From Clostridia bacterium (GTDB lineage: Bacteria > Bacillota > Clostridia > Oscillospirales > CAG-272): 64,000 bases of DNA. A program made the translations under genes and the position numbers. The notes below the pieces were generated by a model. It did no database searches, was not told the origin of the DNA, and worked only from the letters and a program-made list of their open reading frames with translations. Of the stretch, positions 49,075 through 59,724 are shown piece after piece (position 1 is the stretch's first letter; each line of letters starts with the position of its first letter). The stretch is from the NCBI GenBank assembly GCA_017503285.1, contig JAFVTH010000018.1:42930-106929 (forward strand). The letters run 5' to 3'.

Positions 49075-49536
49075 CTATATTTTCTCGTAGGTGATTATAG
49101 TGTCGTTTGCGTGGCATTTGCCAAGCTTTTTTTCTTTGATTTTTATTTCCTCGCCGTTGGAGATAATAAGGGAGATAGTGGTATCGTAGCCCTTTTTTTC
49201 TATTTCCTCAAGCTCTACACGCAAAATAAGCTGACCTCTTTTTACCTTATCCCCCACGTCCGCCTTGGGAAAGAAATGCTTACCCTTTAATTCAACCGTG
49301 TCTATACCCACATGGACAAGCAGCTCTGCCCCGTCGCTTGACATTATGCTAAATGCGTGCTTAGACTCATGTAGGGTTATAATTTGACCATCAACAGGGG
49401 AAAATATGCTACCCTGTGTCGGTTTTATCCCAACTCCATCGCCTAAAAGTCCGCTTGAAAAAACCTCATCCTCAACGTCCCTTAGCTCAATTACCTCTCC
49501 GCTTGCTACTGTGCCTATTTCCTTATTCATATACAT
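49075..49536 (-). CDS. crr: PTS glucose-family EIIA component
   Basis: DEVFS..LLGDG, SPVDG, KHA, LVHVGIDTV. Confidence 0.9.
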   Translation of the reverse strand: MYMNKEIGTVASGEVIELRDVEDEVFSSGLLGDGVGIKPTQGSIFSPVDGQIITLHESKHAFSIMSSDGAELLVHVGIDTVELKGKHFFPKADVGDKVKRGQLILRVELEEIEKKGYDTTISLIISNGEEIKIKEKKLGKCHANDTIITYEKI

Positions 49537-51170
49537 TCACTTACCTTTCCTCTTATTCCTAAAAGATATGGTACAGATACAGAAAGCTCGTCAACGCCTA
49601 TTTTTGCAAGTGATTGTGTCAAGCTTAAATCTGCTGCCATTTCTCCGCAAACGCCGATCCAGCCACCCCTTTTGTGTATGGCATCCGTTGCCATTTTAAT
49701 AAGCCTTAAAACAGGCTCGGCATTTTCCTCGCAAATATGAGAAACGCTTGGATTTTGCCTATCGGTTGCCAAGGTATACTGACTTAGGTCATTTGTTCCC
49801 ACGGAGAAAAAGTCCACCTCCTTGGCAAGCTCCTCACTCATTATGGCGCTTGCCGGAGTTTCTATCATTATACCTATCTCTATTTTTTCATCAAAGCTTT
49901 CTTTTCTTTCCCTAAGCTCCCTCATTGCATCATTAATCAGCGCCTTGCACTCTCTTATCTCGCTAACTGACACAATCATAGGTATCATAACCGACACTCT
50001 GCCATAATAAGAGGCTCGCAAAATCGCCCTGAGCTGGGATTTGAACATTTCCTTGTCCCTAAGGCAAACTCTGACACCTCTTAAGCCAAGGGCAGGATTT
50101 TCCTCCTTGGGAATATTAAAATATGGCGCTTGCTTGTCAGCACCTATATCAAGGGTGCGAATTATAACCCTGCGCCCCTCCATTTTCTCGGCTATTTCCT
50201 TGTAGGAAAGAAAAAGCTCCTCTTCGGTCGGCAAAGATTTTTTTGACATATAAAGCATTTCACTTCTTAAAAGTCCTATCCCCTCCGCACCGTTGGAGAT
50301 TGCGCCGGATATTTCCCTTGAGCTTTCAATATTTGCATATATCATTATTTTGTAGCCGCTACGGGTCACGGCAGGCTTGTTCATTATAGAGCGCAGATAT
50401 CTTTCATGCTCCCTTGCTATCCTCTCCTCCTTGTCCCTTTGCTCTAAAAACCTGTCTTTTTCCTCGTTTGTTGGGTTTATTATAAGGGTCCCGTCAGAGG
50501 CATCTAAAAGCGCGTATGCACCGTCGTATACTTTATCTATTGCTCCTGTGCCGACAAGAGCAGGAATCCCCATTGCACGAGCAAGGATTGCGCTATGGGA
50601 GGATGATGAGCCACCAAAGGTTACAAAGCCTAAAATCTTGTCCTTCTCCAGCCTTGCAGTTTCTGTGGGGGTTAGGTCCACTGCCACTAAAATGTAAGGA
50701 GACGTGTCTATTTTTACATCCTTTTTCTCCTTTTCATCAAGAGATGAAAGCAGCTGCTCCTTTATATCTAAAATGTCGCTTGCTCTTTCGGAAAGGTATG
50801 GGTCGTCAAGTGATTTTAGCATATTTGAATATTCAAGACAGGCATATTCTATTGCGCCCTCACAGGAGCTACCTTTATCTATTTTTTCTAAAATAGCTTG
50901 ATTTAGATCCTCGTCATCAAGGAGCATACGATGGATTTCAAAAATCTCTGCCTCGTCCTTGCCTATTACTCTCCTTGTTCTTTCCTCTAAATCAATGAGC
51001 TGGTCTGTTGCCCTGCTTTTTGCTTTTCCAAAGCGTTCAAGCTCTCTTTCCGGGCTTGATGGCTTATCCTTATCTCCGATTGAACTTTTTTCCTTTTTAA
51101 TAAAATGCAGTCTTGCGCCAACCTTTAGACTTGTTACACCAACACCTCTTATTTTTTTAACCTCTTTCAT
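49527..51170 (-). CDS. ptsI: PTS enzyme I
   Basis: SHSAILAR, GIGLLRSE, RTLDIGADK, ENPALGLRG, SVGTNDL, CGE; start trimmed to MKEVKK. Confidence 0.93.
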   Translation of the reverse strand: MKEVKKIRGVGVTSLKVGARLHFIKKEKSSIGDKDKPSSPERELERFGKAKSRATDQLIDLEERTRRVIGKDEAEIFEIHRMLLDDEDLNQAILEKIDKGSSCEGAIEYACLEYSNMLKSLDDPYLSERASDILDIKEQLLSSLDEKEKKDVKIDTSPYILVAVDLTPTETARLEKDKILGFVTFGGSSSSHSAILARAMGIPALVGTGAIDKVYDGAYALLDASDGTLIINPTNEEKDRFLEQRDKEERIAREHERYLRSIMNKPAVTRSGYKIMIYANIESSREISGAISNGAEGIGLLRSEMLYMSKKSLPTEEELFLSYKEIAEKMEGRRVIIRTLDIGADKQAPYFNIPKEENPALGLRGVRVCLRDKEMFKSQLRAILRASYYGRVSVMIPMIVSVSEIRECKALINDAMRELRERKESFDEKIEIGIMIETPASAIMSEELAKEVDFFSVGTNDLSQYTLATDRQNPSVSHICEENAEPVLRLIKMATDAIHKRGGWIGVCGEMAADLSLTQSLAKIGVDELSVSVPYLLGIRGKVSECI

Positions 51171-51432
51171 TTTCCCCCAGCTTTTCCTTGCATACATTGT
51201 ATAGGGCGATTTTTGCCCTTTCCTCGTCATGACCCTCTATCTTAAAGGAAAGCTCTGTGTCGCACCTTGCCCCAAGCGCCATTATGGAAAGAAGCCTTTT
51301 TCCGTCTGCCACCTTTCCGTTTGCGCTTATTTCCACTCTTGACTCAAAGGTTTTTGAGGCAGCCGATATTGCCCCTGCCGGTCTTGCGTGTAAGCCGTTT
51401 TTGTCCTTTATAATAAATGTAAATTCCTTCAT
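51157..51432 (-). CDS. ptsH: HPr family phosphocarrier protein
   Basis: GLHARPA with His15; upstream of enzyme I. Confidence 0.9.
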   Translation of the reverse strand: MKEFTFIIKDKNGLHARPAGAISAASKTFESRVEISANGKVADGKRLLSIMALGARCDTELSFKIEGHDEERAKIALYNVCKEKLGENERG

Positions 51433-51442
51433 TTTCCCCTCG

Positions 51443-51523
51443 CTAGCAACAAAAGGCTCGGACTAAGTTGTCTTGGAGCGACAAATTGCTGAGTATTTGT
51501 CCGACTTTTGTTTTGAAAATTTT
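51443..51523 (-). repeat. Single copy of the ~80 bp hairpin element also at 33080-33160
   Basis: Shares ACAAAAGTCGGACAAA, TCGCTCC, AGACAACTTAGTCCGA and CTTTTGTTGCTAG. Confidence 0.85.
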
Positions 51524-51610
51524 ATATTACACTTATTATTTTGGCAGTATTTTCTCTTTTTATGCAAATAAAAAAGGGAAACAGCACACGCCGTTTCCCT
51601 TATATTTATT

Positions 51611-54496
51611 TTAGTCTTCCTTGCTTGTAGGAACGATATAGTCCATATGTGTTATATCATACAATTCATTATAAGATATGCCACTTGGATTTTTAATGGT
51701 TTCATTATCCTGTACATAGCTAATATCGCTACCATTTATAATATAGAAGCTCATAATATAGCTATTTTCAAGCATGGACTTTTGAATACCTGTAAGTTTA
51801 AGCTCATAATAAACAGAATCAGATGAGGTTAGATTAATCTTTCTAACGCCGGTCTCTGCACTGCCATCAGCCTTAAGCGGTGTGTTTGTGCCAAGTCTGT
51901 CCTTAAGAGCAACAACCATACCAATTTCAAAGGTTGTTCCCTTTGTGCTGATAAAGTTGCTTATAGCATCACGGTCTATTTCGTATCTTGTTGCCACACC
52001 GTAGCTATCAGCACCCTGCTGTGTTGAGAAGCCAAGGCAGGAAAGAAGCGGTCTTTGTGTAGGAACGCTCTCGTCAATATCCTCGTGGCAGAAGTCACAA
52101 TCATAAACGCCGATGCCAAAATTTGTGTAGCCGTTATCGTATCTGATATCGACAAGCACATTCAAGCCGTGGGCGCTCTTTGGTGTAACAACCTTAACAA
52201 CCTCAACAACGTCATAGGTTGTGCTATTTGTAACCTTTCCCTTAAACAGCTTATAAATTGCGTCCTTAACCTCTCCACATGGGCAGTCGGTTTCGTAGTA
52301 TGTTCCACCCTCGGTTGTACAGCTTGCATCCACTGTTTTTACAGTATAAGCGTGCTTAATGCCGTAGTGGATTTGGTAGTTTGTGCATTCATTAAACGCA
52401 CTGCCGTTTTCTGTTTTTGCAACTGTATACAAGGAAAGGTTTGTATTTTTCTTAAAGCCGTTATTTCCAACGGAAAGCGTGTCTGCGTGGTGGTATACCT
52501 TAGCATTTTGCGCTATGCTTTCAAAGGCAGAGTCGCCAATGCTGTTGATTTCCATAAGCACGATGGTGTGAAGCTTGGAGTTTCCATAGAAGGTTGAGTT
52601 TGCAATTTTTGTAATGCCTTTACCTATATATAACTCCTCAACACCGGCCTCATAAAAGGCAGCAACCTCAGCAAATGTTACATTTGCGCCGTCTGGGAAA
52701 ATAAGCTTTTTAATATTTGTTTTCTTAAAGCTATCCTGTCCGAAGGTATATTTACTACCCGATGACAGATTAAGGGCAGAAACATTTGCAATGCCGGTAA
52801 AGGCTTCCTTTTTAAAGTTGATATCTGCGCCCTCAACATTTGAATTGATTGTCTTTAAGGTTGATGGGGCACATTTTGCATTGAAGGTAACTGTTGCTTT
52901 TTTAACTGTTATTGTTTCAAGAGAGGTTAGCTTTGTTAGGCTTTCAATTGTAACAATTGCGCCGTCGTCAATTATAATCTCCTTAACATTAGCGCGATTT
53001 GTGCCAAAGTTAACACTAACAACACCCATCGGGATTATGATTGTGTCAATAGAGTCAACACTATACCCGCCAAACGCCTTAATATCTGTAACGCTGTAGC
53101 CTTTTGAAGTTTCGGTCAAGGCAAACAGCTCCTTAATAGCTGCCTCCACAGTTTCCTTTTGTCCGGAGCCATTAATGATTACAACGCTTATTGTATCGGT
53201 TGATGGGTCATATAGTAAAACCCTGTACTCTGCGCTTTTGCAGGTCTTGCAAATGTATTTTTCCCAGCCAAGCTCAGTTTTTGTAGCCAATTTCTTTTCA
53301 GAAAATTCATAATCATGTGTGCCAAACTCGCCGTATCTGAAGGACACCTCATGTGAACAATGCTCACAGGTGTAAATCTCCTCAGAAATGTTACCGCAGC
53401 TTGCATTGGTCTTAGCTGTTAGCTTATAAGAATGTGCCTCTTGATTACAATCCTTAGGCACAACTGTTTTATAAGCTACGCCACCAATAGTAAAGTCCAT
53501 TAGCTTATAAGTCGCAAAATCTATTGTTGTGCTAAGGGCTATTTGGTCCTCGCCCTCAATTGAAAAGTTACCGCCTGTGATTGTAAACACGGTCTTTTCA
53601 TCACGGAAAAAGCTATATGTAGAGTTGGTCATTATAATAGAACCACCTCTAATATTTGCTTTAATAGTAATGCCGCTTGTGGTTTGATTTGTAAAGCGGC
53701 TGTTGACAACAAGCAAGCCACCGTCGTTGACCTCTAGGCGAGGCGAGCATGGTGAATTATGCCCAAGCTGCATTGCAATATTACATGTGGCCTTGCCATA
53801 AATTTGTAGCCAAGGATAACCCTGTGAAACATAACCGTTGTTATCGTGAATCAAAATTGAATTCGGTGCGTCAACAATAACATCTCTACCAATAAACAAA
53901 ACACAGCAGTCACCACCCCAGCCATGGTTTCTTGCAAGAAGAAACTCATTTGTGCCGTTGTATGTAACCTTGCCTGTACCATAAAACTTAATACCTGTTC
54001 TGTCGCCACCGAAGGCAGTGTTATTGCCTGTAATATTTATATTATGTCCGTTAAGCAAAACTGTAGCAACGTCCCAGTTTTTCGTGGTAACCCTGCCGGC
54101 GCCCTCAATATCCTTTATAAGTCTGATTGGAGTTGCGTCACCAGCGCAGGTTTTAAATGTATTAAAGTCCGAAACGTCAAGCGCAACAATTTGGCGAAGG
54201 TTTGTATCTTCATTAAGGATAACCTCGGTGCCACCCTCCCAGGCACGACCGTCATCGGTGTACCAGTTAAAGGAATAGCCCTGCTCTACCTCTTTTGTAG
54301 GTAGCTTATATGGCACGCCTGCTTGAATTTCAACCTTACCCTTTTCTCCAAAGCTTTCATCGATCGAGCTATCTTTATAGAAGGTAAGATTTATTTCAAG
54401 GGCAAAGCATGATATTGCAAAAAGCATAATCAGCATTGCTACCATAGAAAGCGTAATTAAAATTTTAGTCTTAGTTTTTATCATAACGCACCCCAT
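51611..54496 (-). CDS. Secreted BspA-type leucine-rich-repeat protein
   Basis: Signal peptide (AISCFA), IGDSAF/IANSTF LRR units, His/CxxC modules; start could be 54484. Confidence 0.82.
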   Translation of the reverse strand: MGCVMIKTKTKILITLSMVAMLIMLFAISCFALEINLTFYKDSSIDESFGEKGKVEIQAGVPYKLPTKEVEQGYSFNWYTDDGRAWEGGTEVILNEDTNLRQIVALDVSDFNTFKTCAGDATPIRLIKDIEGAGRVTTKNWDVATVLLNGHNINITGNNTAFGGDRTGIKFYGTGKVTYNGTNEFLLARNHGWGGDCCVLFIGRDVIVDAPNSILIHDNNGYVSQGYPWLQIYGKATCNIAMQLGHNSPCSPRLEVNDGGLLVVNSRFTNQTTSGITIKANIRGGSIIMTNSTYSFFRDEKTVFTITGGNFSIEGEDQIALSTTIDFATYKLMDFTIGGVAYKTVVPKDCNQEAHSYKLTAKTNASCGNISEEIYTCEHCSHEVSFRYGEFGTHDYEFSEKKLATKTELGWEKYICKTCKSAEYRVLLYDPSTDTISVVIINGSGQKETVEAAIKELFALTETSKGYSVTDIKAFGGYSVDSIDTIIIPMGVVSVNFGTNRANVKEIIIDDGAIVTIESLTKLTSLETITVKKATVTFNAKCAPSTLKTINSNVEGADINFKKEAFTGIANVSALNLSSGSKYTFGQDSFKKTNIKKLIFPDGANVTFAEVAAFYEAGVEELYIGKGITKIANSTFYGNSKLHTIVLMEINSIGDSAFESIAQNAKVYHHADTLSVGNNGFKKNTNLSLYTVAKTENGSAFNECTNYQIHYGIKHAYTVKTVDASCTTEGGTYYETDCPCGEVKDAIYKLFKGKVTNSTTYDVVEVVKVVTPKSAHGLNVLVDIRYDNGYTNFGIGVYDCDFCHEDIDESVPTQRPLLSCLGFSTQQGADSYGVATRYEIDRDAISNFISTKGTTFEIGMVVALKDRLGTNTPLKADGSAETGVRKINLTSSDSVYYELKLTGIQKSMLENSYIMSFYIINGSDISYVQDNETIKNPSGISYNELYDITHMDYIVPTSKED

Positions 54497-54654
54497 TTAG
54501 GTAATAAAAGGATAGATTTATATTATTATAAATATAATCTTACAGACTAATTATAACATTATATAAAATATTTGTCAACATAGCAATATGCACAAATTTA
54601 GCTATTTTGCACAACTTTTCAAGCCTTTTTGCCATCGATAAAACGAAATTACAC

Positions 54655-54684
54655 AAAAAAAGGATGCCGAAGCATCCCTTTTTG
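54655..54684 (-). terminator. Intrinsic terminator, probably for pgk-tpiA
   Basis: AAAAAAGGATGC-CGAA-GCATCCCTTTTT; UUCG loop on minus strand. Confidence 0.75.
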
Positions 54685-54710
54685 ATTACATTAAGCTTTG
54701 CCTTGCCACC

Positions 54711-55355
54711 GCGTACCGAACGCTTTGACGCTCAATGCTCAATTGGAAGTCAGAACCGAAAAAGACAAGGCGTACCGAGCATTTTGAGGCTTTAGAAGCA
54801 AGTGATTCAAGGCGCACCGAACGGTTTGACGCTCAAGGCTCAATTGGAAGTCAGAACCGAAAAGGACAAAGTGTGCCGAACGGTTCGACGCTCAAGAAGC
54901 AAGAAAGACAAGGCGCACCACAGGTTGAGGGCGCAGGCATACCTTTTGTATGTCAAGGTTTCTCGCGAACCCCCTAAAAAGCCACACTTTTTTGGGGAAC
55001 CCCTCAGCACCGAGGAGCAACGACAAAGCACGAAGCTTATCAAAGCCTCAATTGGAAGTTAGAACCGAAAAAGACAAGGTGTACCGCAGATGTCGGACGA
55101 AGGCTATCTTACGATAGTCGAGGTCTCTCGCGAACCCCCTAAAAAGCCACGCTTTTTTGGGGAACCCCTCAGCACCGAGGAACAACGATGTATTTTGAAG
55201 ATTATCACTTTCAATGTTTGAGACTTTAGAAGCAAGAAAGACAAGGCGCACCGAACGGTTTGACGCTCAAGAAGCAAGAAAGACAAGGCGCACCACAGGT
55301 TGAGGGCGCAGGCATACCTTTTGTATGTCAAGGTCTCAACCGAGGAGCAACGCAG
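54711..55355. repeat. Modular intergenic repeat mosaic (REP/MITE-like)
   Basis: Eight copies of a CAAGGYGYACC-like core plus five recurring modules of 15-45 bp. Confidence 0.9.
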
Positions 55356-55381
55356 TATCTCGCAGCTTATTGTGTGTCAAA

Positions 55382-56137
55382 TTATTGGGCAGCGGAAACT
55401 ATGATAGAAAAATCCTTAGCCTTTAAGGATGCACCGCCGATAAGACCGCCGTCAACATTTTCCTTTGCAAGAAGCTCTTGTGCGTTTGCTGCATTCATTG
55501 AGCCACCGTATTGAATGGTGATTTCCTCTGCTGCCTTTGCGCCGTAAAGAGCTTTGATTGTGTTTCTGATTGTGCCACAGGTTTCGTCAGCCTGCTCCGG
55601 TGTAGCTGTCAAGCCTGTACCGATAGCCCAAACAGGCTCGTATGCTATTATAACATTCTTAAGCTGCTCCTCTGTTACGTCCTTAAGAGCAAGCTTTGTT
55701 TGCATAGATACAACCTCGTCTGTGATGCCGTTAAGTCTTTCGTCCTTAACCTCGCCAAGACAAAGGATAACTGTAAGGCCTGCGTTAAGAGCAGCCTTTG
55801 TTCTAAGGTTTACTGTTTCGTCTGTTTCGCCAAAGTACTGTCTTCTCTCGCTGTGGCCGATGATAACATACTGAATGCCACACTCCTTAAGCATATCTGC
55901 AGAGATTTCGCCTGTGTAAGCACCCTTTTCAGCAAAGTGAACGTTTTCAGCACCGATTTTAATGTTAGAGCCCTTTGCAGCCTCTTGTGCAGCATAGATA
56001 TCAACAAATGGTACACAGAAGATAATGTCGCAGTTGTCCTTGCCTGCAACAAGTGGCTTTGTCTCCTCAATAAGAGCCTTAGCCTGGCTTGGGGTCATAT
56101 TCATTTTCCAGTTTCCAGCAATAACTTTTCTTCTCAT
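55382..56137 (-). CDS. tpiA: Triose-phosphate isomerase
   Basis: AGNWKMN, GHSERR, AYEPVWAIGTG, YGGS. Confidence 0.98.
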   Translation of the reverse strand: MRRKVIAGNWKMNMTPSQAKALIEETKPLVAGKDNCDIIFCVPFVDIYAAQEAAKGSNIKIGAENVHFAEKGAYTGEISADMLKECGIQYVIIGHSERRQYFGETDETVNLRTKAALNAGLTVILCLGEVKDERLNGITDEVVSMQTKLALKDVTEEQLKNVIIAYEPVWAIGTGLTATPEQADETCGTIRNTIKALYGAKAAEEITIQYGGSMNAANAQELLAKENVDGGLIGGASLKAKDFSIIVSAAQ

Positions 56138-56220
56138 TTTCTTTATTTCTCCGTATTCATATTAATAGTTGTTCATATGTTAATTTGTAAATAAGATAGC
56201 CAAAAAGCCAATAAAATCAA

Positions 56221-56248
56221 TGTATGCAGGGTTTTACGCCTGCATACA
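56221..56248. other. Hairpin between pgk and tpiA (stabiliser or weak terminator)
   Basis: TGTATGCAGG/CCTGCATACA stem without a clear U tract. Confidence 0.5.
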
Positions 56249-56258
56249 CAAATGATTA

Positions 56259-57560
56259 TTATTTATCTTGTAGGCAAGCAATACCTGGGAGCTCAAGACC
56301 CTCAAGGAATTCAAGAGATGCACCACCGCCTGTGGAGATGTGTGTCATCTTGTCAGCAAAGCCAAGCTTTTCAACTGCAGCAGCAGAGTCACCACCACCG
56401 ATAATGGAGATAGCACCGCTTTCAGCAACTGCGTTAGCAACTGCCTCTGTACCTGCAGCAAAGTTCTTCCACTCGGAAACGCCCATAGGACCGTTCCAAA
56501 CAACTGTGCCGGCACCCTTGATTGCGTTTGCAAATAGCTCCTGTGTCTTAGGACCGATGTCAAGACCCATCCAGCCGTCAGGAATTTCATTAGAGTTGCA
56601 GAACTTAGATTCTGTATTCTCGTCGTACTCCTTACCAAGCTTGTTATCAACAGGGATAAGGAACTTAACGCCCTTAGCCTCTGCCTTGTTCATCATTTCC
56701 TTAGCAAGCTCAACCTTGTCGTCCTCGCAAAGAGATGTACCAACGTTGTAGCCAAGAGCCTTGAAGAATGTGTAAGCCATACCACCGCCGATAATGAGGG
56801 TGTCAACCTTTTCGATAAGGTTGTTGATAACGCCAATCTTGTCAGAAACCTTAGCACCGCCAAGGATAGCAACGAATGGACGAGCAGGATCTGCAAGAGC
56901 CTTGCCCATAACGCCGATTTCCTTTTGAATGAGGTAACCGCAAACTGCAGGTAGGTACTCAGCAACGCCGGCTGTTGTAGCGTGTGCGCGGTGAGCAGTA
57001 CCGAAGGCATCGTTTACATAAATGTCTGCGTAGGAAGCAAGCTCCTTTGCAAAGTCAAGATTGTTCTTTGTTTCTCTTGCGTCGAAACGAACGTTTTCCA
57101 AAAGAACAGCCTTACCAGCTGTAAGAGCAGCAACCTTAGCCTTTGCGTCCTCGCCAACGATATCCTCAGCGAATGTTACTGTACCCTCGCCAAGAAGCTC
57201 GTTAAGTCTATCTGCAACCGGCTTAAGTGTAAGCTTTTTCTTGTCGTCTACAAGAGCCTTAGCAAGAAGGTCTTTTGTAGCTGCAGCTCTTTCTGCCTCA
57301 GGAAGCTCCTCTACCTTTTTCTTTTCCTTTTTTGTAAGGCCAAAGCCCTCTGTAAGAATGCTGTGTGGCTTGCCCATGTGGGAGCAAAGAACAACCTTTG
57401 CACCGTTGTCAAGTAGGTACTTGATTGTTGGAAGAGCGCCGATAATTCTCTTATCGCTTGTGATCTTACCGTCCTTCATAGGAACGTTGAAGTCACATCT
57501 AACAAGCACTCTTGCGCCTTGAACGTTAACGTCTTCAATTGTTTTCTTGTTGTAGGTCAT
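56259..57560 (-). CDS. pgk: Phosphoglycerate kinase with internal insertion
   Basis: [44 protein letters not shown]. Confidence 0.98.
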
Positions 57561-57643
57561 TTTAATTTATCTCCTATTTTTTATTTTTTCGCATATAATA
57601 TAGCATATTTTTATCTATTTATCAATAGATATTTGAAATTTTT

Positions 57644-58486
57644 TTACATGACAACATATCTTACGATATAGTAGCCTATCAAAATAACGCCAAGGGCGAT
57701 TCTATACCAGCCAAAGCTTTCAAAGCTATGGTTCTTAACAAACGCCATAAGAAGCTTGATTACAAAGAGGGACAAGGCAAAGGCAACTACTGTGCCGGCT
57801 ATCAAAACACCGATTTCCGTTGCATTCAGGCTAAAGCCACCTGCTACAAACTTTATGATCTTAAGCAGGCTTGCGCCAAGCATAACGGGAATTGCAAGGA
57901 AAAAGGAAAACTCCGCAGCGGCGGTTCTTGACACCTTGACAACCGATGCGCCGAGGATTGTAGAGCCGGAGCGAGATGTGCCGGGAATCAAGGAAAGCAC
58001 CTGGAAGCAACCGATTTTCAAAGCAGTCGGATAATCAATATCGTAAACGTCCTCATACTTCATTTGTCTGTTTTTGTTAAGACGTTCGATAACAATAAAC
58101 AAAACGCCATAAACCACAAGAGCTATTGCAACTGTGATAAAGTTATAAAGATAAGTGTCAAGCAGGTCCTCAAGGATAATGCCGATTACAGCAGCGGGTA
58201 AAACCGCAACTATAACCTTAAGCCACAGGGACCAGGTTTTCTTTTTCAGCTCCGGAGCTTTGTTTTTTGACCAAGGGTTTAGCTTATCAAAAAACAAAAT
58301 AATTACTGCCAAAATCGAACCAAGCTGTGTTATAACCTCAAAAAGATTCCAGCACTCATCACTGATATTCAGCTTTATAAACTCGTTGGCAATTATCATA
58401 TGTCCCGTGCTTGAAACGGGTAGCCATTCGGTTATGCCCTGCACAATGCCTATAAGGGCAGCCTTTAGGATTTCTATAAATTCCAT
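57644..58486 (-). CDS. uppP: Undecaprenyl-diphosphate phosphatase
   Basis: QGITEWLPVSSTGH, PGTSRSGSTI, AAEFSF. Confidence 0.96.
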   Translation of the reverse strand: MEFIEILKAALIGIVQGITEWLPVSSTGHMIIANEFIKLNISDECWNLFEVITQLGSILAVIILFFDKLNPWSKNKAPELKKKTWSLWLKVIVAVLPAAVIGIILEDLLDTYLYNFITVAIALVVYGVLFIVIERLNKNRQMKYEDVYDIDYPTALKIGCFQVLSLIPGTSRSGSTILGASVVKVSRTAAAEFSFFLAIPVMLGASLLKIIKFVAGGFSLNATEIGVLIAGTVVAFALSLFVIKLLMAFVKNHSFESFGWYRIALGVILIGYYIVRYVVM

Positions 58487-58488
58487 TT

Positions 58489-59724
58489 TTACCTTTCTGA
58501 CGAGCGAATAATATCTCCTGCCTTAACCTCAAAGGGCACCTTCATCTTAAAGGTCATTGATGGGTGGGGCGCAGAGGGTATTTCCTCGCCTTTTTCGTTA
58601 TATAGCTTGTCAACCTCAAAGCGTCTGCCTGTTTTGCCGGGAGTGATAATTTCGCACACGTCCCCCGCCGAAAGCTTGTTTCTTTGGGTAAAATAATAGT
58701 ATTCTCCGTCGCGCTCTCCTGTGGCAACACACAAATAAGCCTTTTCCCTAAGATAACCGTTTTGTGTAACGGTTTGGGGGTTATCCATAGGGTTGTCAAA
58801 GTAAAAGCCTGTTGCATATTCTCTATGGCTAACGCTTTCCAGCTCTCTTAGCCAAAGGGGATTATAGCGATATCGGGTAGGGTCTTTTCTATACTCGTCC
58901 ATTGCCATCTTGTAAGTATTTGTGCAAATGGCTGTGTAATATGCACTTTTCATTCTACCCTCGATTTTGAAGCTATCAATGCCACTTTCCATAAGCTCCG
59001 GAATATGCTCAATCATACACATATCCTTAGAGGACATAACAAATGTGCCCTCCTTATATTCCTCAATGTTAAGCGGGGTCTTTGGTCGCTTTTCCTCGGA
59101 AAAAGAAAGAGGAAGTGCGTTTGTGTAGTTCCAACGGCAGGGCTGGGCGCAGGCGCCACGGTTTGCATCTCTGCCTGTGTAGAAGTTGGAAAGCAAGCAT
59201 CTGCCACTGTATGAAATGCACATTGAGCCGTGTATAAAGCACTCAAGCTCTAATTCCTTTGGGGTATTTTTTCTGATTTCGTTAATTTCCTCAAGAGAAA
59301 GCTCTCTTGCAAGCACAACACGCTTTGCTCCCATTTTATGCCAAGCTGTGGCTGTATATGCAGAAACAACGCTGGCTTGGGTGGAAATATGTATTTCCAT
59401 ATTCGGTATAAGCTCTCTTGTAAGCTGGAAAACCCCCAAATCGGAAATAATAAGGGCGTCAACACCTATTTCGTCATAGCGCTTCAGGTATTTTTTCAGC
59501 CTTTCGTACTCCACTGTGTGAGGCATTGTATTTACAGTAACATAAAGCTTTACCCCGTGGGCGTGTGCGTATTTCACAGCCTCCTCCAGCTCCTCAAGGG
59601 TAAAGTTATCAGCAGCGGCACGCATACCAAACATATCAGAGGCAAGGTAAACTGCATCTGCGCCATATAGTATGGCAGCCTTCATTTTTTCAAAATTGCC
59701 TGCCGGGCAAAGTAATTCCTTCAT
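58489..59724 (-). CDS. U32 family peptidase-like protein (TrhP-type tRNA hydroxylation)
   Basis: ELLCPAG, HISTQ, HGSMCISYSGRC, CAQPCR, KIEGR. Confidence 0.9.
   Translation of the reverse strand: MKELLCPAGNFEKMKAAILYGADAVYLASDMFGMRAAADNFTLEELEEAVKYAHAHGVKLYVTVNTMPHTVEYERLKKYLKRYDEIGVDALIISDLGVFQLTRELIPNMEIHISTQASVVSAYTATAWHKMGAKRVVLARELSLEEINEIRKNTPKELELECFIHGSMCISYSGRCLLSNFYTGRDANRGACAQPCRWNYTNALPLSFSEEKRPKTPLNIEEYKEGTFVMSSKDMCMIEHIPELMESGIDSFKIEGRMKSAYYTAICTNTYKMAMDEYRKDPTRYRYNPLWLRELESVSHREYATGFYFDNPMDNPQTVTQNGYLREKAYLCVATGERDGEYYYFTQRNKLSAGDVCEIITPGKTGRRFEVDKLYNEKGEEIPSAPHPSMTFKMKVPFEVKAGDIIRSSER

Follow-up and report, generated by a model that had tools for sequence, protein, structure and literature searches.

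The stretch between the tpiA stop codon and the terminator of the pgk-tpiA transcript is filled with short repeated sequences in the window analysed here (the whole stretch of 64,000 nucleotides). The question is what this array is, and to which kind of known repeat, if any, it belongs. A sequence-only reading had described it as a mosaic of shuffled modules from a combinatorially assembled family of non-autonomous elements, related it to REP and IS200/IS605-type hairpins handled by HUH transposases, and placed it in the 3' UTR of pgk-tpiA. The best-supported reading of the present results is that the element is REP/BIME-like in its lifestyle and has a new architecture of its own. For the fuller reading of the mosaic, as copies of a non-autonomous, structured palindromic element arranged in tandem and partly recombined, we consider the case to be evenly balanced.

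The region 54711-55381 of the window is a tandem array of one repeat and contains three full units and four to five half copies. The genome of the window, a 1.5-Mb assembly of 32 contigs, is called G000 below. The features of the locus are listed here from the two genes through the array to the terminator; S1 to S5 denote the stems of the predicted fold.

56259-57560, minus strand: pgk coding sequence, upstream of tpiA (Pfam PGK, E 1.1e-159)
55382-56137, minus strand: tpiA coding sequence, 251 amino acid residues (Pfam TIM, E 2.7e-95), stop TAA at 55384-55382
55257-55381, plus strand: full unit U3, short and gene-proximal (covariance model R1, 126 bits; motif coordinates; fold)
55217-55254, plus strand: 5' half-unit with S1 5' arm TTTGAGACTTTAG, S2/S3 5' arms and loop motif to CACCG (nhmmer partial match, hmm positions 1-40; motif scan)
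55047-55216, plus strand: full unit U2, long form (covariance model R1, 55 bits; motif scan)
55126-55171, plus strand: optional 46-nt extra hairpin in U2 (occurs solely within units genome-wide)
54882-55052, plus strand: full unit U1, long form (nhmmer; covariance model, 45 bits; motif scan)
54961-55006, plus strand: optional 46-nt extra hairpin in U1, CGCGAACCCCC..GGGGAACCCC, after the GTCAAGGT loop (sequence)
54839-54879, plus strand: 5' half-unit of CTCAATTGGAAGT type (CAAAGTGTGCCG) (motif scan; direct-repeat family D4)
54783-54820, plus strand: 5' half-unit of TTTGAGGCTTTAG type (nhmmer partial match; motif scan)
54738-54778, plus strand: 5' half-unit of CTCAATTGGAAGT type (motif scan; direct-repeat family D4)
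54711-54737, plus strand: distal fragment, loop-motif end GCGTACCG and S1 5' arm AACGCTTTGACGCTC (sequence)
54683->54656, minus strand: intrinsic-terminator-like hairpin and T-tail, end of the pgk-tpiA transcript past the array (12 pairs and T-run; promoter/terminator scan)

All four 5' half-units terminate at CACCG. The core CAARGYGYRCC was found by motif scan seven times, at 54766, 54808, 54867, 54909, 55075, 55242 and 55284; eight copies had been claimed, and the one at 54711 is truncated, with GCGTACC alone. The scan reproduced the module counts: GGTTYGACGCTC occurs three times with a variant near 54720, CTCAATTGGAAGT three times, AAGCAAG four times and TTTGAGRCTTTAG twice, and the hairpin is present three times, as GCATAC/GTATGT twice and as GCTATC/GATAGT once. 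The copies are co-oriented and follow one another without unique spacers, as had been noted. A repeat search of the array gave five direct families and zero inverted pairs, and TRF gave a 101-nt period with a score of 292. No match of the gapped core pattern is expected by chance (100 shuffles of the window).

Units have a length of about 130 nt, or 176 nt with the optional 46-nt hairpin, and their predicted fold is a five-stem rod in which the internal loops are asymmetric and conserved. On the plus strand of the window the order is S1, a G.A mismatch, S2, S3, a loop, S4, a loop and S5. S1 is locus-specific and comprises about 12 bp, S2 is AAGC/GCTT, S3 and S4 are variable and S5 is GCRTAC/GTAYGT. 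The loop between S3 and S4 is CAAGGCGCACCG / CGAGGAGCAACGC and that between S4 and S5 is GGGCGCAG / GTCAAGGTC. Compensatory changes were found in 23 of the 28 predicted pairs (RNAalifold, 18 short units). Paired cells amount to 93.3%, compared with 72.9% on shuffling (0 of 500 shuffles reach the observed value) and 34-37% when the partners are slid. The Y of the core and the R of GAGGARCAAC vary together: pair 39-99 is C-G 11 times and U-A 6 times. The compensatory change that had been seen in the hairpin is thus real, and it is part of a much larger covarying structure. The extra hairpin follows GTCAAGGT in about one third of the units, and a genome-wide search found it absent outside them.

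This structure explains the modules, which had been regarded as independent building blocks and are instead the arms and loops of one unit, together with truncated 5' half-units. Modules GAACGGTTTGACGCTCAA and TTTGAGRCTTTAG are each an S1 5' arm, CTCAATTGGAAGTYAGAACCGAAAA is an S1 5' arm fused to variant S2/S3 5' arms, AGAAGCAAG corresponds to the S2-S3 5' arms and the hairpin module is S5. No Rfam covariance model matched the unit at E up to 1 in window positions 54000-56000 and five loci with units. An integron attC site was rejected, the R''/R' boxes RYYYAAC ... GTTRRRY being absent at the hairpin base in the unit alignment, judged by eye. A CsrA-type sponge with AGG loops and a 6S-like decoy of RNA polymerase were considered from the loop sequences alone and dropped.

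The three full units of the array differ in their outer stems. In U3, S1 is TTTGACGC / GTGTCAAA, and its 3' arm is the 12 nt that separate the tpiA stop from TAAGC. In U2, S1 is AATTGGAAGT / ACTTTCAATG and S5 is GCTATC/GATAGT. The 5' arm of U1 is of the TTCGACGC type, while its 3' arm CAAAGCCTCAA has its pairing partner in the half-unit at 54783, the TTTGAGGCTTTAG arm. Since the arms of U1 are of different types and the 3' arm matches a half-unit arm 100 nt upstream, U1 is a recombinant and recombination has reshuffled the array. The RNA data comprised three bovine metatranscriptome runs, as contigs of low depth and without strand. One of these contigs skips exactly 55125->55172, which is the 46-nt hairpin of U2, and so an insert-free copy exists in that sample.

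The terminator lies beyond the array and no plus-strand promoter-like site was found in the scan between terminator and array. The array therefore lies in the tpiA 3' UTR, as had been proposed, and is placed where co-transcription with pgk-tpiA must occur. The units themselves were rejected as intrinsic terminators: no T-run follows them, and the sole minus-strand T-run terminator-like site past the array is 54683->54656. A coding function was also rejected, the six ORFs of the array (67-86 amino acid residues) having no Pfam match. Directly downstream of the tpiA terminator is a gene for a 961-residue BspA-type leucine-rich-repeat protein (51611-54496, minus strand), whose promoter is a perfect consensus, TTGACA-17-TATAAT, at 54578->54550.

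The genome-wide BLASTN comparison that had been suggested finds the same family at 12 places of the window's own assembly. BLASTN and iterated nhmmer together gave 33 nhmmer hits, 28 of them full or nearly full, and covariance model R1 gave 30 matches. In the genus, 23 of the 24 sampled genomes carry the unit, with 1-41 matches each. Within the family, 12 of the 97 genera sampled carry a diverged unit (1-6 matches, 35-78 bits), and for other families of the order the count was 1 of 16, with a weak match. The proposal of a combinatorial non-autonomous family holds in that the sequences are dispersed, non-coding, shuffled and genus-wide, with 30 matches in the genome, but its modules are not independent blocks. 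Two pattern scans of viral contigs as carriers returned zero and two stretches. Neither of the two is a member of the family: one lacks most of the core and reaches 17 bits, and the other has no covariance-model match.

The median pairwise identity of units is 63%. Identities of at least 90% are confined to one array or locus, or to orthologous loci of different species. When two loci of one genome are clearly different, the highest value is 89%; no identical copies were found at different loci. By these values the family is old and diverged and shows no trace of a recent burst. The 130-base hairpin repeat family is apparently undescribed: no description was found in the literature searched, which is weak evidence of absence. 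The arrays break assemblies and create spurious ORFs. In G000 the end of contig C13 (21390-21730) and the start of contig C19 (1-590) both stop inside near-identical long units, and so the two ends are probably one locus, running from a recG-side gene to a DUF1846 gene.

The position behind a stop codon is not particular to tpiA. Nine of the 11 loci of G000 share one layout, namely a gene on the opposite strand, the array from its stop codon onwards, and then a terminator; these genes are tpiA, argF, cyclophilin, ilvD, ilvE-like, DUF1846, queA, infB and miaB-like. Docking was scored when an ORF of 50 or more amino acid residues had its stop within the last 22 nt of the model. Across the genus the stop codon lies inside the outer stem in 45 of 55 last or solo units (mirror control, 9 of 55), and in other genera in 11 of 14 (mirror control, 2 of 14). 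The S2 word, TAAGC in the sense of the gene, is the stop itself or follows it by at most 13 nt. Among the 45 units the stop abuts S1 in 17 (offsets -5 to -3), lies within S1, or is the TAR of TAAGC in five; in the other genera it is this TAR in 6 of 11. The neighbours are mostly housekeeping and translation genes, including tpiA, infB, fusA, aminoacyl-tRNA synthetase genes, queA and ilvD. The queA stop carries a unit in G000 and in three other genera.

Three further neighbourhoods were noted. A 6S RNA gene of G000 (Rfam RF00013, 63 bits; C17:25936-26160, L006:2837-3061, minus strand) has three plus-orientation units directly upstream on its own strand, and the 6S RNA gene of G005 (L018:1623-1848, plus strand, 60 bits) is directly preceded by two plus-orientation units on its strand. 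The last unit and the 6S 5' end have 10 nt in common, and with the shared strand this means that the 6S precursor may carry rods as a leader. A T-box leader (100 bits) lies upstream of pheS, and a unit fragment with the optional extra hairpin follows it, squeezed in before the start codon of pheS and behind the terminator of the T-box (L007:2683-2926, plus strand, and G000 C18:4200-4350). A gene for a DUF559 (Vsr-like) nuclease (L011:1438-1794, minus strand, on C32 of G000) is located just past the unit of the miaB-like gene and is framed by GGGAGG/CCTCCC hairpins.

It is important to compare sites that carry the unit with those that do not. The comparison of relatives that had been suggested shows units behind tpiA in 5 of 30 genomes of the genus, with four unrelated S1 stems. 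The other 25 sites have the stop, about 15-90 nt and then a terminator hairpin; for 4 of them less than 430 nt of downstream sequence is available. The tpiA 3' ends of G004 (L045) and G015 (L047) contain, by eye, diverged unit-like motifs in opposite orientation, GACAAGGCG.. and TAGGCGCGACC..GTACGCAAGTACGC, which the covariance model misses. Of 25 argF loci in the genus, 6 are filled, as confirmed by the covariance model, 18 are empty and one (L183) is cut before the stop. Both tpiA and argF sites are thus filled in some genomes and empty in others, a pattern in which gain and loss are indistinguishable.

The outer stem S1, of about 12 bp, joins the last bases of the gene itself to their inverted copy on the other side of the unit. 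In 52 of 64 distinct arm pairs, 8 or more of the 12 positions are Watson-Crick pairs; when arms are matched at random, 15% reach this level. The C-terminus of argF, TIKAVMLSTL(K) followed by the stop, is identical in the 6 filled and the 18 empty sites. In four filled sites (G000, G005, G014 and G043) the TAR of S2 is provided by the native stop, and the last four native codons form the near arm of S1, with an inverted copy of CTTTCGACTTTA as its far arm (TAAAGTCGAAAG, TAAAGCCGAAAG and similar). As the native C-terminus is the same in filled and empty sites and the far arm is its inverse, the far arm was either templated from the native coding sequence or selected to match it. The alternative that S1 is a native hairpin split by insertion was rejected for argF, because the empty sites have no inverted copy. 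In the empty argF sites of G009 (L178) and G011 (L180) the terminator 5' half AAGTCGAAAG is complementary to the last codons at 8-9 of 10 positions; it has the look of the far S1 arm at filled sites and is a possible footprint of a lost unit. The inner S1 words ACACAA and GGAATTAAA recur at unrelated genes, which suggests that part of S1 may travel with the element.

Orthologous units are well preserved. In four comparisons they are 95-99% identical, compared with 86-95% for the adjoining coding DNA, and the queA unit is retained in at least four genera. In the orthologous pair of G019 and G004 the core is 94% identical and both S1 arms are wholly different. Other same-gene pairs show replacement, at 53-81%. 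To judge from these sequences, the conservation of orthologous units and the persistence at queA look like purifying selection for a host function, not like selfish DNA.

The unit also distinguishes between the two strands. Two pairs are G.T in nearly all units, one in 65 of 68 and the other as 46 G.T, 12 G-C and 8 A-T. When these two are set aside, the inner stems have 35 wobble pairs versus 11 of A.C type, and S1 has 37 versus 7 (the scoring ignores wobble; binomial 5e-6, for copies that are not independent). The conserved non-canonical positions are the G.A beside S2 and fixed G.T pairs in S1, S4 and S5. The wobble excess favours the strand antisense to the neighbouring gene, which is the plus strand of the window. 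RNA fold z-scores are -2.98 and -3.85 for the plus strand and -1.07 and -2.29 for the gene-sense minus strand, and DNA fold z-scores are -2.46 for the antisense strand versus -0.44 for the gene-sense strand. The better-folding strand is the C- and T-rich one at 12 of 13 places by GC skew and at 13 of 13 by AT skew, and this strand is the leading-strand template. The 6S locus is reversed, the plus orientation of its units being on the strand of the 6S gene in both G000 and G005. The wobble and fold signature is antisense and the gene map is sense, so that the molecule that folds, by its sequence, differs from the one that is transcribed.

What might mobilise such a unit was considered next to its host genes and by phyletic pattern. 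No transposase had been noticed nearby, and this holds for the ORFs annotated at 49527-59724. The sole Y1_Tnp gene of G000 (C31:3912-4424, with the HUH motif as HFH and a YKYICENP motif) lies 30 nt from the infB array. The same 24 genomes of the genus were searched with a RAYT protein query (P0001) and with PF01797 (Y1_Tnp), PF07282 (TnpB), DUF559 and RVT_1 (RT). Numbers of matches in the eight genomes with at least 13 unit matches are as follows.

G022: units 41; P0001 0; PF01797 0; DUF559 0; RVT_1 0
G023: units 40; P0001 0; PF01797 1; DUF559 0; RVT_1 0
G021: units 30; P0001 0; PF01797 0; DUF559 1; RVT_1 0
G000: units 30; P0001 1; PF01797 1; DUF559 1; RVT_1 0
G010: units 28; P0001 0; PF01797 0; DUF559 0; RVT_1 0
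G024: units 27; P0001 0; PF01797 0; DUF559 1; RVT_1 2
G008: units 19; P0001 0; PF01797 0; DUF559 0; RVT_1 0
G005: units 13; P0001 0; PF01797 0; DUF559 0; RVT_1 1

Homologues of P0001 were not found in seven of these eight genomes and PF01797 has no match in six; TnpB gave 0 of 25 genomes of the genus, G000 included. Conversely, G004 has two units yet nine RAYT-like and eight DUF559 matches, and G018 has three RAYT-like matches and zero units. G021, which is 97% complete in 10 contigs and has 30 units, has none of Y1, TnpB and RT; several of the other genomes are incomplete. All five candidates were rejected as the mobiliser, since none tracks the unit matches. No unit halves bracketing a gene, as in an autonomous insertion sequence with the same ends, were seen in the loci read, and the enzymes searched for were Y1, TnpB, DUF559 and RT.

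Mobilisation as a REP or REPIN by a RAYT would agree with the closeness of the Y1 gene (HFH and YxxxxxNP) to the infB array and with the extragenic, hairpin-forming and clustered nature of the repeats. However, the hairpin by which a RAYT or TnpA gene was expected to be flanked is not that of the unit. The Y1 gene contains, and has beside it, another repeat, a REP of the classical type, GTAGGGGC[AG]GATTCC...GCCC. This repeat has 11 pattern hits, often at contig ends, and 10 of the 11 have a GTAG head. The unit has no GTAG or CGTC head and never occurs in inverted doublets. With the phyletic pattern above, in which G018 has RAYT-like matches and no unit and most carriers have no Y1_Tnp, the link to REP, IS200/IS605 and HUH enzymes is not upheld, and we regard mobilisation by a RAYT as very improbable. 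The Y1-linked REP itself, GTAGGGGC[AG]GATTCCATATC[TC]GCCC, was located at C31:3880-4424 (L010:2480-3025), C1:158, C4:20315, C6:14594, C12:303 and C32:15351-16969; one copy is within the Y1 gene, where it encodes ..VGADSISAR.., and two are just downstream.

The remaining alternatives concern RNA. The unit could be a cis-acting 3' UTR RNA selected by the host, the gene-sense rod starting within the footprint of the terminating ribosome and either protecting the mRNA from 3' exonucleases or coupling termination to the fate of the mRNA. Its position between stop and terminator means that it is transcribed with the gene, in 45 of 55 units no more than 13 nt separate S2 from the stop, the neighbours are housekeeping and translation genes, and orthologous units are conserved above the flanking DNA, with the queA unit kept across genera; REP termini that supply stop codons are described in PMC3733652. 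But both the conserved and the variable wobble pairs turn into A.C mismatches in gene-sense RNA, and the gene-sense fold of U3 is weak (z -1.07, 29 of 200 shuffles at least as good). The unit is also dispensable at each gene, being absent from tpiA in 25 of 30 genomes and from argF in 18 of 24 scorable loci. This possibility is held to be doubtful. Less likely again is a structured plus-strand RNA, antisense to the gene end or within a longer precursor, in which the loops and G.U pairs would bind a conserved protein. The covariation, the G.U excess and the better folding are all on the plus strand, as are the conserved non-canonical G.A and G.T positions, and the arrangement of three plus-orientation units upstream of the 6S gene, with its 10-nt overlap, is repeated in G005. 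Against this, there is no plus-strand promoter-like site between terminator and array, the terminator hairpin comes before the array on that strand, the units are antisense to the only nearby transcription unit at 9 of 11 loci of G000, and no Rfam family matches.

The reading as a non-autonomous structured element is faced with the failure to find a mobilising enzyme among Y1, TnpB, DUF559 and RT, or identical copies at different loci. It is also opposed by the conservation of orthologous units and the retention of the queA unit, by the place of the better-folding strand on the leading-strand template and, as regards the origin of S1, by the inner S1 words that recur at unrelated genes. Under it, the element would be inserted or renewed at gene ends by a strand-specific process at the level of DNA. 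The far arm of S1 would be made by fold-back copying of the flank, a quasi-palindrome template switch, while the arrays and half-units would result from local duplication and unequal recombination, and the sense transcript would carry the element as a 3' UTR passenger. A bolder and quite tentative proposal is that the unit might act throughout the family as a strand-specific nucleic-acid device. A single strand, of DNA or, at the 6S locus, of RNA, would fold and display fixed G.T and G.A signatures to a conserved host protein; it would home to the site of ribosome termination and take up the last 12 bases of the gene as an inverted copy. If this were true, site-directed insertion would proceed by fold-back copying in a new, enzyme-orphan mode, and the ancestral, functional copy would be the one at queA, which at least four genera retain. 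The results add a well-defined structured repeat, supported by covariation, to the uncultured rumen and gut Oscillospiraceae. The docking on stops, the codon-templated outer stem and the strand-specific wobble provide a concrete way into the question of how gene ends are chosen and reshaped by palindromic elements.

The unit may now be compared with known systems. Like the IS200/IS605 elements, as treated in PMC6006769, it has a meaningful hairpin on one DNA strand and an orientation tied to the replication or gene strand. PMC6006769 has Y1 transposases targeting the lagging strand, whereas the better-folding strand of the unit is opposite to the lagging-template expectation for IS608-type elements. 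IS1272 targets inverted repeats without target duplication, according to the abstract of PMC5678879. Most carriers of the unit, unlike IS200/IS605, have no TnpA or TnpB.

BOX elements are modular, with the parts BOX A-B-C. Together with ERIC, Correia and RPE they are bacterial MITE-like palindromic repeats (PMC2229807), and the unit resembles them in being non-coding and about 100-150 nt long, in its long imperfect hairpins, in its modular or mosaic build and in its presence or absence between relatives. Insertion polymorphism is seen at tpiA (5 of 30) and at argF (6 of 25 loci, one of the 25 being cut before the stop). The unit differs from MITEs in that it has no direct target-site duplication and its flank is instead copied inverted. 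No parent insertion sequence was seen in the loci read. Its stems vary freely and its loops are fixed, the reverse of the conservation of terminal inverted repeats.

For E. coli REPs located near stop codons, Liang, Rudd and Deutscher reportedly described in 2015 effects of this kind, the protection of mRNA from 3' exonucleases or a coupling of termination to the fate of the mRNA. REP, BIME and REPIN are taken here as defined in PMC6006769, and in PMC3733652 REPs have termini that supply stop codons, contain G.T pairs in their stems and are set inside small palindromes. The unit differs from a REP, a palindrome of 20-40 nt, in being a 130-nt rod of five stems with asymmetric conserved loops, in having a consensus without a GTAG or CGTC head and no cognate RAYT, and in building its outer stem from the gene's own last bases; in contrast to REPINs, its copies within an array are all co-oriented and never form inverted doublets. 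It is similar to REPs and BIMEs in being extragenic, hairpin-forming and high in copy number, in forming mosaic arrays in operon 3' UTRs, between stop codon and terminator at 9 of 11 loci of G000, and in having G.T pairs in its stems and ends that may supply or overlap stop codons (PMC3733652). The unit thereby separates three aspects of what is called 'REP-like': it differs from REPs in sequence class and in enzyme, and it shares with them the lifestyle.
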